Assembly (NCBI GenBank): GCA_026416845.1
Contig: JAOAEL010000007.1
Location: 78-64,077 of the forward strand
From: Patescibacteria group bacterium
GTDB lineage: Bacteria; Patescibacteriota; Microgenomatia; UBA8517
DNA: 64,000 nucleotides
Direction: 5' to 3'
Positions 4,111-64,000 of this stretch are shown here, piece after piece. Each line of letters starts with the position of its first letter. Positions within the stretch are counted from its first letter, which is position 1. The position numbers and the translations under genes are program-made. The notes below the pieces were generated by a model. It had not been told where the DNA came from and searched no databases. It was given only the letters and a program-made list of their open reading frames with translations.

Positions 4111-5634
4111 CTAAAAGCCGGGAAAGTAATCTGTTTTTATTTGTTTATTTGGTATGCCGATTTTGGCAAGCAGGTTTTTATAAGAATCAACCATCGCGCT
4201 TGGGCCTGATAAATAATATGTTTGCTCTTTATGGTTTTTTAAATATTTTTTGATTATTTCTTCGTTTAAGTATCCTACTTCTCCCTTCCAGTTTGGGGAA
4301 ACCAAATCTTTGTTTGTAAGCAAGTAAATTGTTTTCAATCCTAATTTTTTGTTTGCTTGGTCTAGCACATTTTTGTATGCTATGTCGTTTATTGTATTGT
4401 TTGCGTAAAAAAGAGTGATTGGTCTTTTTTCTTTGACGTTGGTAAGATATCTGATCATACTTATAAAAGGCGTGATTCCTATCCCGCCCGCGATGAAAAC
4501 CAGAGGTTTATTGATGTCTTTTGGCATTACAAAATCACCGCCTAAATTTCCTGCCAATACTTTGTCGTTGGCTCTTAAATTAAAAATTGTATCTTTGAAG
4601 CTACTTCCTTTCGCATCCGCAAACTTTATTCCAAATCTTACTTTTGTGTCGGTTGGCGATGACGCAATAGTGAAGTACCTTCTATTCCCTCTTGTGTCGT
4701 TTGTGGTCGTATTAAGAGTTAGTTCCAGATATTGTCCGGGCAAAAATGTCAATTTTTTGTCTGGCTCAAAAACAAATTCGTAAGTGTTTCTGGCTATTTT
4801 TAGCTTTGTTTTAAAAGCAAGAATAGTTTTTTGTTTTGGACTTATCAAACACGAAAATACATTGCCAATTACTATTGCAAGCTCGGGAGATGAAAAAATT
4901 GGGCCAAAAGAAAATTGAAAGCTAAACAAAAATCCAACTACCGCTCCATATATTTTTCTTTGTAAATTTGTTGCAGGCATTGTCGAAGGTTCTGTAAGCA
5001 TTATTGTTCCCAGAAAGATTGTTGGCCATGAAATAACTACCTCATAAATTGATTTCACAATATCAATATTGTTTTTCAGGCTAAATAAACTGCTTGTCGC
5101 AAGCGTTGTTATAAAAAAAGCAAAGACCATGCCGGATTGTCTTATCTTTTTAACCACTAAAAATCCCAATATGGCAACAGGTATTGCAAGACTTGCGCTT
5201 CCTACCCACCATATAGAATTTCCGAAGCCAAAAATGCCAATTGTCAAAAGAGCGATTGCTACCGGATTGAATATATGACTGTTTTTTAGTTTAAAAATAT
5301 ATTTTGATAAGATAGCAATTGTACTTGCGATGATTGTTATTAAAATATCGCTTTGATAATTATCTGGCGGAGCAATAATCAAAAAAAGTATTAACGCGCT
5401 TATAAGCCATGAATCATTGTTTGTGGGAAGATTAGAAATTTTTTGACAAATTTTGTTTGAAATATAGCATGTTATGATTATTACTGACAAAGAAACAATA
5501 AGAGAAATTGCGTTTAAAGGGAGTATACCTAAAAATCCGTATGCTATTGATAATAAGGCAATCGCACAAAGCGCGTAAACAGTGATTTTATACATTGTGA
5601 TGTTATTTAAATATGTGTCGATTTTTTGTATCAT
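4111..5634 (-). CDS. Polytopic membrane protein with a C-terminal ferredoxin-NADP-reductase-like FAD/NAD(P)-binding oxidoreductase domain
   Basis: The N-terminal ~250 aa is highly hydrophobic with about eight predicted TM helices. The C-terminal half carries an RxYS-type FAD motif (RRYFTIASSP) and a GGxGxxP NAD(P) motif (AGGIGITPF). Confidence 0.6.
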   Translation of the reverse strand: MIQKIDTYLNNITMYKITVYALCAIALLSIAYGFLGILPLNAISLIVSLSVIIITCYISNKICQKISNLPTNNDSWLISALILFLIIAPPDNYQSDILITIIASTIAILSKYIFKLKNSHIFNPVAIALLTIGIFGFGNSIWWVGSASLAIPVAILGFLVVKKIRQSGMVFAFFITTLATSSLFSLKNNIDIVKSIYEVVISWPTIFLGTIMLTEPSTMPATNLQRKIYGAVVGFLFSFQFSFGPIFSSPELAIVIGNVFSCLISPKQKTILAFKTKLKIARNTYEFVFEPDKKLTFLPGQYLELTLNTTTNDTRGNRRYFTIASSPTDTKVRFGIKFADAKGSSFKDTIFNLRANDKVLAGNLGGDFVMPKDINKPLVFIAGGIGITPFISMIRYLTNVKEKRPITLFYANNTINDIAYKNVLDQANKKLGLKTIYLLTNKDLVSPNWKGEVGYLNEEIIKKYLKNHKEQTYYLSGPSAMVDSYKNLLAKIGIPNKQIKTDYFPGF

Positions 5635-59734: not shown

Positions 59735-60310
59735 ATGACAGCCAGGACACATGATGCATTTGCTTTTACCTCTTTAGTCACTGTGGCGACTATATTTCCG
59801 CCTGATCAAATAAATCTTTATACCTTTTTTGCTTGTATTATTGGCAATATCACTGGGGCTTTGATACCTGATTTAGATGATCAAGGAAATCGGCTTTGGG
59901 ATTTGATGCCTGCTGGGAATTTGTTTGGCAAAATTTTCAGAAGAATATTTTACAAACACAGAACCATATCTCACTCGCTTTTGGGTATGTGTTTGGTTTA
60001 TAAATTCTTTGAATGGTTGCTTCCCAAAATTCTAAACCCTGAGTTTATAGATCCGACTCTTTTGCTTTACTCAATAATGATTGGCTTTGTGTCTCATCTT
60101 GTTGTAGATGCTCTCACCAAAGATGGCATTCCACTTTTTTTCCCATTCAAACCGAATATTGGTTTTCCTCCTTTTGAAGCTTTGAGAGTTCGAACTGGAA
60201 GTTGGGTTGAAAATTTTGTGGTTATGCCGTCTCTTGGAGTATATTTTATTTGGTTTATTAGTAACCATACTGAACAGATTAAGATTTTATTGGAGTCTAT
60301 TAAGACTTAA
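59735..60310 (+). CDS. Membrane-bound metal-dependent hydrolase (DUF457/YdjM-like)
   Basis: His-rich motifs (RTHDAF, HRTISHSLLG, SHLVVDALTKDG) typical of DUF457. Confidence 0.5.
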   Translation: MTARTHDAFAFTSLVTVATIFPPDQINLYTFFACIIGNITGALIPDLDDQGNRLWDLMPAGNLFGKIFRRIFYKHRTISHSLLGMCLVYKFFEWLLPKILNPEFIDPTLLLYSIMIGFVSHLVVDALTKDGIPLFFPFKPNIGFPPFEALRVRTGSWVENFVVMPSLGVYFIWFISNHTEQIKILLESIKT

Positions 60311-61037
60311 GTTTTCTTGCGACGGCGATTATTCCGTTTCCGATAAACAAGTTAGTGTAATTCAAAAAAAATTGTTCAATTCTTGTAAGCGCAATCATGA
60401 TTTTATTTATCAAAGTATTCACTTTTGTTACTGCCGTTTGAGAATTATTTCTACCTGATATTTGCCATAGGATGTGTTTAATCAAAGCAGGCAAGAAAAG
60501 AAAAAAATTGATGTAGCTTAATTTTTCGATTTTGAATTTTGTTTGCGCTAGCATTTCTTTTACCTCAGAAATGAAGTATCTTTTTTTGATATGTACCCAC
60601 TTATCGTGTTCAGAGGCAAGCCATGGTATTGCTGATGCTCGCATTATTAAAATCCCATTTGGTTTTAATACTCTAAAAATTTCAGACAAAGCTTTTTGTT
60701 CGTTATCAACTTCGGCAAGATTTATGACATCTATGCATGTTACGATATCAAAATAATTATTTGGGTATGGTATCTTTGTAACGGAGCCGATTTTGACATT
60801 TATGTTTCTTTTTTTTGCATATTTTATTGCTTCTTTTGATAAATCTATTCCATACACTCTACCCAATGCAGACATTTTTTTTGCCAAAAGTCCGGCGCCG
60901 CAACCTGCATCAAGTATTTTGGGATTTTTTTTGCGTGAATATTTTTTAATCAAAGAGATAACAATTGAATGAATACCAACATAGTAAAAATGAGTGGCTT
61001 CGTTTTTGTATATATTTTCGTATTCGGCAGATTCCAT
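60300..61037 (-). CDS. Class I SAM-dependent methyltransferase
   Basis: ILDAGCGAGLLA motif I and VLKPNGILIM. Confidence 0.7.
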   Translation of the reverse strand: MESAEYENIYKNEATHFYYVGIHSIVISLIKKYSRKKNPKILDAGCGAGLLAKKMSALGRVYGIDLSKEAIKYAKKRNINVKIGSVTKIPYPNNYFDIVTCIDVINLAEVDNEQKALSEIFRVLKPNGILIMRASAIPWLASEHDKWVHIKKRYFISEVKEMLAQTKFKIEKLSYINFFLFLPALIKHILWQISGRNNSQTAVTKVNTLINKIMIALTRIEQFFLNYTNLFIGNGIIAVARKLKS

Positions 61038-61073: not shown

Positions 61074-61787
61074 TTATTTTGGAAGCATTAATTCAATCCA
61101 TAATTTTGCTAATTCTGCCAAAGTTTTGGCTAATTTATGTGGCTTGAAAAATTGAGAACTGCCATGTTTTCTCTCGTAGTGGTGCACTGATACTTGTCTG
61201 AAAACAGCGCCTTGATTTTGAGCTTTTTTTACAAGTTCCACGCAAATTGCCCCGCTTTTTATTTTCAGATCCAGTTTTTTCACAAGATTTGCTCTTATGA
61301 GTCTGAAATCGCAATCAACATCATAAACCGGTAACCAAAAAGCCCATCTTACGACAAAGCTATAGAAATTGCCCAAAAAAATTCTGTATGTTGGATCTTT
61401 GCGAGCCATTTTCATGCCATTCACGAAATCTACGTCATCTGTCATGAGTTGATACAGAAGTGGCAGTTCTTTTACATCATATTGCCCATCGCCGTCGGTG
61501 TAAAAAATTAAATCTTTTGATGCCGTTTTAAAGCCGCTTATTAGCGCTCCGCCATATCCTTGATTTTTTTCATGAAATACTAGTTTTAGATTTTTATATT
61601 TTTTTTGCAATTTTTTAAGTGTATCCCTGCTTTTATCAGTAGAACCGTCATCTATGACTATAACTTCATAATTATCTGCCAATTTTTTTGCCACGCTAAA
61701 TGCGTCTTCAACTAATTTGCCAATTGAGTGTTCATCGTTATAGCAAGGGAAAAAAATGCTAAGCGATGGTTTTTGGGAAGTGGACAT
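61074..61787 (-). CDS. Family 2 glycosyltransferase (dolichyl/polyprenyl-phosphate sugar synthase-like)
   Basis: GT-A motifs (IFFPCYNDE, VIVIDDGSTDKS, DGDGQYD). Confidence 0.75.
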   Translation of the reverse strand: MSTSQKPSLSIFFPCYNDEHSIGKLVEDAFSVAKKLADNYEVIVIDDGSTDKSRDTLKKLQKKYKNLKLVFHEKNQGYGGALISGFKTASKDLIFYTDGDGQYDVKELPLLYQLMTDDVDFVNGMKMARKDPTYRIFLGNFYSFVVRWAFWLPVYDVDCDFRLIRANLVKKLDLKIKSGAICVELVKKAQNQGAVFRQVSVHHYERKHGSSQFFKPHKLAKTLAELAKLWIELMLPK

Positions 61788-61904
61788 AATTTTTTGAAAA
61801 ATTGAAATCTAAAGTTGATTATAACTTATTACCATCCTTTTTAGGTGGAAATTTATGTATAAGGCTTGATTAGTAATTTTTAGTGGAATAAATAGAGAAA
61901 CAGA

Positions 61905-64000
61905 GCCTTTTAGTTCCTAACTTTCGATGCACTCAGTTGGTCCGATTGCCTTTTAGTTCCTAACTTTCGATGTGCCACCTCTATCACTAAGCCTTTTAGT
62001 TCCTAACTTTCGATGTAGCAAGAAACACATTTGTGCCTTTTAGTTCCTAACTTTCGATGCCTTGCTCCACTACCGGGGCCTTTTAGTTCCTAACTTTCGA
62101 TGATCCACAAACTCTTCACCGCCTTTTAGTTCCTAACTTTCGATGTTAGCCCCCCTGATTAGATGCCTTTTAGTTCCTAACTTTCGATGTTGAGGTGAAA
62201 GGATTGGCGCCTTTTAGTTCCTAACTTTCGATGCTAAACGAAGGCTTGGACGCCTTTTAGTTCCTAACTTTCGATGTTAATTTTTTCAATTCCTTGCCTT
62301 TTAGTTCCTAACTTTCGATGTCCAGCCACCTCCGGGCACGCCTTTTAGTTCCTAACTTTCGATGTTGGTGATACTGGAAACAAGCCTTTTAGTTCCTAAC
62401 TTTCGATGACTGTTTCACCAAGCCAAAGCCTTTTAGTTCCTAACTTTCGATGCAATTCAAGCAGATGCCTGCCTTTTAGTTCCTAACTTTCGATGCACCT
62501 GCTATGATGACCTGCCTTTTAGTTCCTAACTTTCGATGACAATCAAAGGAGGGTGGGGCCTTTTAGTTCCTAACTTTCGATGTTTCCAACTTTTTCTGCT
62601 CGCCTTTTAGTTCCTAACTTTCGATGAGGAACGTACCCTATGGTAGCCTTTTAGTTCCTAACTTTCGATGTGTACGACTTTGAGGATAGCCTTTTAGTTC
62701 CTAACTTTCGATGTTTTTCATAGCGCCTCCTCGCCTTTTAGTTCCTAACTTTCGATGTATGTCTTATAATCACATGCCTTTTAGTTCCTAACTTTCGATG
62801 AGTGCAAACCCAGTAGGAAGCCTTTTAGTTCCTAACTTTCGATGCCTTTGGGACAGTGACAGGCCTTTTAGTTCCTAACTTTCGATGGACATTTTAGTTG
62901 CGGAGGCCTTTTAGTTCCTAACTTTCGATGAAAAGGAGGGGAACTTACCGCCTTTTAGTTCCTAACTTTCGATGTTAGCGATAATCTCCGCTGCCTTTTA
63001 GTTCCTAACTTTCGATGAAATGCTCAGTGACAGTTTAGCCTTTTAGTTCCTAACTTTCGATGACTGGGTTTGATGGATTTTGCCTTTTAGTTCCTAACTT
63101 TCGATGTTAGCGATACTTTATACTGCCTTTTAGTTCCTAACTTTCGATGCCAACCAAATGAGTGTTTATGCCTTTTAGTTCCTAACTTTCGATGTTCAAC
63201 CAACCCTGCTTGAGCCTTTTAGTTCCTAACTTTCGATGGTCTCCCTCTTTTCCTCTAGCCTTTTAGTTCCTAACTTTCGATGTGCCGATTACTTTTACAA
63301 TGCCTTTTAGTTCCTAACTTTCGATGCAAGGCGGTTACCAATTAGCCTTTTAGTTCCTAACTTTCGATGCCCCGCAAACGCCACGATCGCCTTTTAGTTC
63401 CTAACTTTCGATGCAACGCCGCCGTGAAGGCGCCTTTTAGTTCCTAACTTTCGATGATATGAATTAGGGGCAATGCCTTTTAGTTCCTAACTTTCGATGT
63501 TGCCGTTCAGTTTCCAAGCCTTTTAGTTCCTAACTTTCGATGTGCCAACATTTTGAGTTTTGCCTTTTAGTTCCTAACTTTCGATGTTCTCTTATGTGGA
63601 CGAAAGCCTTTTAGTTCCTAACTTTCGATGGAATTGGAAAAAAATGTAAGCCTTTTAGTTCCTAACTTTCGATGCACTGGAGCAAGTGGTTCGCCTTTTA
63701 GTTCCTAACTTTCGATGAAAAGGCTTTTGAGGTAATGCCTTTTAGTTCCTAACTTTCGATGCTGAAAGAGCGGCAACAAGCCTTTTAGTTCCTAACTTTC
63801 GATGTGTGGGGAATTGACCCTAAGCCTTTTAGTTCCTAACTTTCGATGTGGCATACCATAATTAGTGCCTTTTAGTTCCTAACTTTCGATGTGATCCGAT
63901 TCTGACTAAGCCTTTTAGTTCCTAACTTTCGATGTATGTTTTCAAAAGGACAAGCCTTTTAGTTCCTAACTTTCGATGCTAATTTTGGTATGTCAAGAGC
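61905..64000. CRISPR. CRISPR array of at least 48 repeats of 25 nt (GCCTTTTAGTTCCTAACTTTCGATG) with 18-20-nt unique spacers; it continues past the window end
   Basis: I counted 48 occurrences of the repeat at a 43-44 nt period. Every spacer is different. Repeats are near-identical; one copy at 62035 has T5 instead of T4. No cas genes lie within 60 kb upstream. Confidence 0.9.

Follow-up and report, generated by a model that had tools for sequence, protein, structure and literature searches.

A long CRISPR array with 18-20-nt spacers in a Patescibacteria contig, carrying the repeat of type V-D (Cas12d/CasY) loci

The array of closely spaced repeats that closes the window (i.e., the whole stretch of DNA analysed here, 64,000 nt in length) very probably constitutes the older part, distal to the leader and spanning at least 2.1 kb, of a type V-D (Cas12d/CasY) CRISPR array on the chromosome of a Microgenomates-type (Woesebacteria-like) bacterium of the CPR. 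Its assignment to type V-D is based on sequence as well as on geometry, since the repeat is the same, over all 25 positions, as that of loci encoding Cas12d, and departs from a published CasY repeat at a single position. A Cas12d/CasY-like nature had been put forward in the original prediction for this DNA, and is now supported by seven loci in which the identical 25-nt repeat is found beside cas1 and cas12d. The array, its borders and the neighbouring genes are arranged in the window as follows:

61905..63978, minus strand (predicted crRNA sense), CRISPR array of 48 repeats and 47 spacers, delimited by parsing and by repeat matches elsewhere
63979..64000, minus strand, 48th spacer (20 nt, CTAATTTTGGTATGTCAAGA on the plus strand) and the GC of a 49th repeat, delimited by repeat parsing
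61788..61904, no strand assigned, AT-rich flank of 117 nt from the leader-distal repeat to the GT2 start, i.e., the array/chromosome junction, with no leader
61074..61787, minus strand, GT2 glycosyltransferase (Pfam PF00535, 99 bits)
60300..61037, minus strand, SAM methyltransferase (Pfam)
59735..60310, plus strand, YdjM/DUF457 (Pfam)

The 25-nt repeat (GCCTTTTAGTTCCTAACTTTCGATG on the plus strand, and CATCGAAAGTTAGGAACTAAAAGGC in the minus-strand form that corresponds to the predicted crRNA sense) is present in 48 perfect copies, the first starting at 61905 and the last ending at 63978, and such a number of exact copies of a 25-mer makes an origin by chance impossible. The 47 complete spacers, no two of which are alike, have lengths of 18 nt (21 spacers), 19 nt (24) or 20 nt (2), with an array period of 43-45 nt, for which Tandem Repeats Finder gives 44. 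These values agree with the initial description of at least 48 units of a 25-nt repeat with unique spacers of 18-20 nt; the period then proposed, 43-44 nt, holds for most units and falls short of the upper end of the measured range, and the repeats, then called almost invariant, turned out to be more uniform still, being identical in 48 of 48 cases. Elsewhere in the window, neither repeat variants with up to 5 substitutions nor reverse-complement copies were detected. The final 22 nt of the window (CTAATTTTGGTATGTCAAGAGC) consist of a 20-nt spacer followed by GC, i.e., the first two bases of a 49th repeat, and the leader motif of related loci (AGTATA.., AGTTTA.. or AGCATA.. in plus orientation) was not matched by positions 63979-64000. 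Thus, as the window ends on a spacer and a repeat start, unlike the leader in related loci, the array extends beyond position 64000. With at least 48 repeats, versus 12-17 in the assembled relatives, it is the longest array among the loci compared.

Repeats located at the old end of an array are often degenerate. The leader-distal terminal repeat of the window (61905-61929) is perfect, and the terminal repeat of L008, one of the related loci described below, has one mismatch; the perfect terminal repeat, together with the identity of all 48 copies, suggests that the window array is young or has been homogenised. Periodicity alone would also be displayed by a tandem repeat unrelated to CRISPR (i.e., a minisatellite or an assembly artefact), an explanation that we consider virtually untenable, given that the spacers are all unique and tightly controlled in length, that the repeats are invariant, and that the same repeat carries wholly different spacers beside cas genes in other genomes. 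The minisatellite was refuted, the inter-repeat segments having no copies and Tandem Repeats Finder reporting 65-66% matches over whole units.

On its leader-distal side, the CRISPR array is followed across the AT-rich flank by the gene for the GT2 glycosyltransferase, which is a housekeeping neighbour marking the array boundary and lies outside the CRISPR system. Promoter-like matches in this flank (61788-61904) were no commoner than in shuffled sequence. The three genes upstream of the array (GT2, SAM methyltransferase and DUF457) had been read as unrelated to cas, with which the Pfam assignments agree, and exact-sequence look-ups of the GT2, methyltransferase and YdjM products of the window returned no record. 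The same junction, formed by a repeat, some 100-125 nt and the GT2 start, was also found in L010, whose GT2 is 99% identical to that of the window, and in L011 and L012 (81%); sequencing run SRR15826902 includes a strain having this junction and a GT2 of 99% identity. These are Logan contigs from three other sequencing runs, containing the closest GT2 relatives, and all of them end inside the first repeat, beside the GT2 orthologue:

L010, 1-25, contig end inside the first repeat
L011, 6-30, contig end inside the first repeat
L012, 1-24, contig end inside the first repeat

The shared repeat-GT2 junction indicates that relatives with 81-99% identity in GT2 have kept the array at the same insertion site, and the contigs stopping inside the first repeat indicate that assembly from short reads is interrupted by the array. 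Elsewhere, the window contains housekeeping genes of the kind expected in a CPR genome, among them MutS, MutL, Lon, BipA and SecA (Pfam), a gene content characteristic of small genomes, with a window GC of 33.6%; an Rfam scan of the window returned two tRNAs and nothing else. The closest named GT2 homologues belong to Woesebacteria, Blackburnbacteria and Daviesbacteria, and the identical repeat is carried by loci of Patescibacteria MAGs, in keeping with a CPR (Patescibacteria) host.

For the identification of related loci, the exact 25-mer was scanned in public genome and metagenome contigs, and nine loci from Patescibacteria-type MAGs were retrieved, five of which (L003, L005, L006, L007 and L008) include an array with flanking genes. 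Five further contigs (L018-L021 and L025), all from samples other than that of the window and three of them from Logan assemblies, were reached through homologues of the Cas12d protein of L008; L019 and L025 have repeats identical to that of the window, and L018, L020 and L021 display repeat variants of one or two bases in the same locus layout. The exact repeat and cas-side flanking genes are thus combined in seven loci (L003, L005, L006, L007, L008, L019 and L025), and in all seven Cas1 (Pfam PF01867; TIGR00287) adjoins the array and a cas12d gene lies beyond cas1. The large protein encoded beyond cas1 in L003 and L005-L008 is without a Pfam domain, and all five of these Cas12d matched NCBIfam NF033951, the Cas12d/CasY equivalog, with 386-956 bits against a cutoff of 250; the Cas12c model gave 31-62 bits on the same neighbouring proteins, also against a cutoff of 250. 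The Cas12d of L019 and L025 are 55% and 69% identical, respectively, to the L008 protein, several homologues of which are named Cas12d/CasY by NCBI in the same match list. No spacer was common to the window and any retrieved locus, and no matches with up to 1 mismatch were found between the spacers of one locus and the sequence of another, the window included. A fragmented Cas12d in L006 and L007 was considered and rejected, both being intact in one frame and running off the end of the fetched locus.

Conservation is much stronger in the repeat than in the effector: the former is 100% identical across L003, L005, L006, L007, L008 and L019, yet the Cas12d proteins of these loci are 35-55% identical, and the effector sequence therefore cannot be deduced from the repeat by itself. 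This divergence beside identical repeats, along with the absence of an effector from the window, would be compatible with a different or undescribed short-spacer effector of type V-like kind, whose array would merely resemble those of CasY in geometry. Such an effector is most improbable, as verified Cas12d loci have the repeat without a single difference (25 of 25 positions), a published CasY repeat shares 24 of these positions, and all the partner proteins tested score above the cutoff of the Cas12d equivalog and far below that of Cas12c. The earlier suggestion of an undescribed compact type V-like system was therefore not sustained, all the evidence fitting ordinary type V-D.

All oriented relatives of the window array display the same order: first a structured RNA some 100 nt in length, next cas12d, then cas1, encoded on the other strand, and finally the leader and the array. 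The leader, located on the cas1 side, is AT-rich, about 90-160 nt in length, and ends in TTGA-N17-18-TAtACT abutting the first repeat; furthermore, in all oriented loci, the repeat has the form CATCG...AAAGGC when read in the same direction as cas12d. Scans of AT-rich DNA for promoters and terminators performed no better than on shuffled sequence, and the orientation is thus based on the conservation of the leader motif. Judging from the conserved leader and the direction of cas12d in these relatives, position 61905 would correspond to the leader-distal, oldest end of the array, and the crRNA strand of the window, with its direction of transcription, would be the minus strand, a point on which the original prediction had been silent. 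An oldest end at 61905 agrees with published array growth, the Cas1-proximal end being given as the growing one in a report on CasY from hot springs (PMC6509639).

The cas side of every related locus corresponds to the side past position 64000, so the cas genes of the array are expected there, and we infer that cas1 (the sole adaptation gene in type V-D), cas12d (an effector of about 1,200 aa with RuvC) and the scoutRNA lie just beyond the end of the window. Within the window, tblastn searches using Cas1 (four proteins) and Cas12d (three) of related loci found nothing (best E value of 0.17), as anticipated by the original prediction, which had stated that the effector was not in the window. 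A scoutRNA covariance model also gave no hit in the window, the best score (13 bits) falling inside the array itself.

Single perfect copies of the repeat, each lacking an array and cas genes in its vicinity, were observed at positions 1616-1640 of L004 and 2176-2200 of L009. The solo repeat of L004 lies about 60 nt past the stop codon of secA, and the locus formed by scoutRNA, cas12d, cas1 and array starts right after secA in L018 and L020, and one gene after secA in L008. Such solo repeats resemble vestiges of loci that were deleted, and their presence in L004 and L009 indicates that locus loss does happen. Related genomes carrying solo repeats without array or cas genes (L004, beside SecA, and L009), as well as the lack of any cas gene within 60 kb on one side, speak for an orphan type V-D array, i.e., one built by Cas12d and Cas1 whose neighbouring cas genes later disappeared or were relocated, and which would then be inert or serve, in trans, a system encoded at another genomic site. 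An orphan is, in our view, quite unlikely: cas1 and cas12d are found on the unseen side in 7 of 7 loci with the identical repeat and cas-side flanks, the window covers the cas-distal side alone, where cas genes are not expected, and the identity of 48 of 48 repeats in the longest of the arrays fits an active or recently active locus. A cas side that is non-canonical in a broader sense, being either orphaned or equipped with a fragmented or altered Cas12d (cf. the published fCasY locus) with at least 48 homogeneous units kept, is unlikely.

The reading of the array as part of an ordinary type V-D locus can be compared with systems already described. CasY.1 of Katanobacteria was reportedly presented by Burstein and colleagues in 2017, and type V-C (Cas12c), with its scoutRNA/tracrRNA, is said to come from Harrington and colleagues in 2020. 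CasY systems from hot springs have 25-nt repeats and 17-20-nt spacers, according to Table S3 of Chen et al. (2019, Front Microbiol 10:928; PMC6509639), and the repeat of the window differs by 1-4 mismatches from six CasY repeats listed there, all being of the same family. A comparison with published CasY repeats had been proposed in advance as a check, and it revealed a match at 24 of 25 positions with the repeat of the QZM_B4 Woesebacteria CasY (CATCGAAGGTTAGGAACTAAAAGGC), and at 23 of 25 with that of a Roizmanbacteria CasY (CGTCGAAAGTTAGGAACCAAAAGGC), both in the same report (PMC6509639). These Woesebacteria and Roizmanbacteria hosts are Microgenomates, like the host of the window, and the published layout, "CasY + Cas1 + CRISPR", is the layout of the loci bearing the window's exact repeat (PMC6509639). 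The window differs from the hot-spring CasY loci in its new spacer set, and in that the cas genes lie outside it; one Woesebacteria genome is recorded there with 78 unique spacers (PMC6509639).

KbCas12d (CasY.1, from Katanobacteria) has 26-nt repeats and 17-19-nt spacers, and its locus consists of cas1 and cas12d alone, with a scoutRNA needed, transcribed in the direction of the array (bioRxiv 10.1101/2023.12.12.571249). The CasY geometry given in the original prediction (repeats of about 26 nt and spacers of 17-19 nt) is in agreement with this source and with the hot-spring report (PMC6509639). KbCas12d resembles the window in array geometry, and the relatives of the window in locus make-up; its array includes only 14 spacers, versus 47 complete ones in the window. 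Further, the KbCas12d scoutRNA is described as lying "upstream of the array", whereas the candidate in the relatives of the window is upstream of cas12d. The PAM is 5'-TA for KbCas12d and 5'-TR for CasY15 (bioRxiv 10.1101/2023.12.12.571249).

The candidate scoutRNA of these relatives is a conserved structured RNA of 80-108 nt, located immediately upstream of cas12d, at the following positions:

L003, 264-369, plus strand, candidate scoutRNA upstream of cas12d
L008, 4601-4704, plus strand, candidate scoutRNA upstream of cas12d
L018, 5880-5983, plus strand, candidate scoutRNA upstream of cas12d
L019, 5890-5986, plus strand, candidate scoutRNA upstream of cas12d
L020, 5920-6000, plus strand, candidate scoutRNA upstream of cas12d
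L021, 5891-5998, plus strand, candidate scoutRNA upstream of cas12d

In its fold, a closing stem of 13 bp encloses one to three hairpins, with standard pairs in 96 of 96 base-pair cells and compensatory changes in five pairs, and its covariation score was reached by none of 500 shuffles. A covariance model built from four loci also detected the candidates of L020 (61 bits) and L021 (97 bits), both outside model building, and no Rfam family matched the scoutRNA region. An invariant UGCCUU in this RNA is complementary to the AAGGC at the 3' end of the repeat, and a segment near its 5' end, AGUUCCUAACU, constitutes an 11-nt anti-repeat complementary to the repeat core AGUUAGGAACU, with a predicted duplex energy of -16.2 kcal/mol. 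Moreover, the anti-repeat covaries with the repeat, as in L018, where the core is GGTTAGGAACC and the scoutRNA reads GGTTCCTAACC. An 11-nt pairing besides the 5-nt dock would make the candidate scoutRNA tracrRNA-like, rather than one of "short complementarity". In type V-C (Cas12c), the 3' end of the repeat is the docking site of a small RNA supplied in trans, as in the relatives of the window, and the Cas12c2 structure displays extra repeat:anti-repeat duplexes (Kurihara et al., 2022; PMC9522604), resembling the combination of 11-nt anti-repeat and UGCCUU dock. The effector family of type V-C differs, as the scores of the relatives' proteins on the Cas12c model (31-62 bits versus the cutoff of 250) indicate. 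A sequence search for a solved Cas12d structure found none.

In the type V-D system proposed for the window, a promoter in the leader past position 64000 would transcribe the array on the minus strand, and each crRNA would begin with a 5' handle derived from the repeat (...AGUUAGGAACUAAAAGGC) and continue with a guide of 18-20 nt. The scoutRNA, which would be encoded just upstream of cas12d, would pair with the repeat at two places, the UGCCUU dock with the 3' AAGGC and the 11-nt segment with the repeat core. Carrying both RNAs, Cas12d would cut DNA matching the guide beside a 5'-TA or 5'-TG PAM, by means of its RuvC site, and Cas1 would insert new spacers at the leader end. Both this PAM and this cleavage activity are what we infer for the window's own system.

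Regarding the targets, the spacers have a GC of 43%, versus 33.6% for the window, and no spacer matches with up to 2 mismatches were found in the window itself; this higher GC and the lack of self-matches fit a foreign origin. Eight window spacers were scanned for protospacers against IMG/VR, and two of them gave three exact 19-nt matches, located in unrelated contigs, with a TG 5' flank in one case:

Spacer 47, exact match in L013 (249-kb phage contig), clamp-loader gene, 5' flank AT
Spacer 47, exact match in L014 (33-kb phage contig), transglycosylase gene, 5' flank TG
Spacer 34, exact match in L017 (3184-3202), large-terminase gene, 5' flank GT

The two sites of spacer 47 have only 20 nt of match in common, and a further 10 kb of L014 (14.9 kb in all) revealed just chance-level spacer matches, with 3 mismatches. 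L017, a 5.4-kb contig with 48% GC (IMGVR_UViG_3300050014_000868), is also matched on its reverse complement by spacer 40, at 4230 (2 mismatches) and 3939 (3 mismatches). None of the L017 matches to spacers 34 and 40 has a TA or TG 5' flank, and this contig may be related to a true target from which it has diverged, or constitute a chance match. Among the eight spacers scanned against IMG/VR, no second spacer matched the same contig exactly, and the matches obtained are about what chance could give, being unproven as targets.

Within the array (61930-63935), five spacer pairs share a 9-mer or longer, versus 0.95 expected from shuffles, and 1 of 500 shuffles reaches that number. Spacers 25 and 28 both begin with TTAGCGATA, and spacers 21 and 27 have a common 10-mer on opposite strands. 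The sequences flanking these shared k-mers differ, and therefore they do not correspond to overlapping protospacers of one sequence; the spacers may derive from related or repeated targets.

As regards its significance, the array described here represents one more type V-D array for a family described between 2017 and 2020, notable for its length alone and with little significance beyond annotation, and its presence implies a Cas12d orthologue in the source genome. A non-canonical cas side, if true, would hint at a role different from standard interference. By means of viral contigs from the same sample, the phages of this uncultured CPR bacterium could be traced through the 47-48 spacers, and, in the related loci, the invariant repeat accompanying a divergent effector, together with the extended anti-repeat, could aid the design of guide RNAs for Cas12d.
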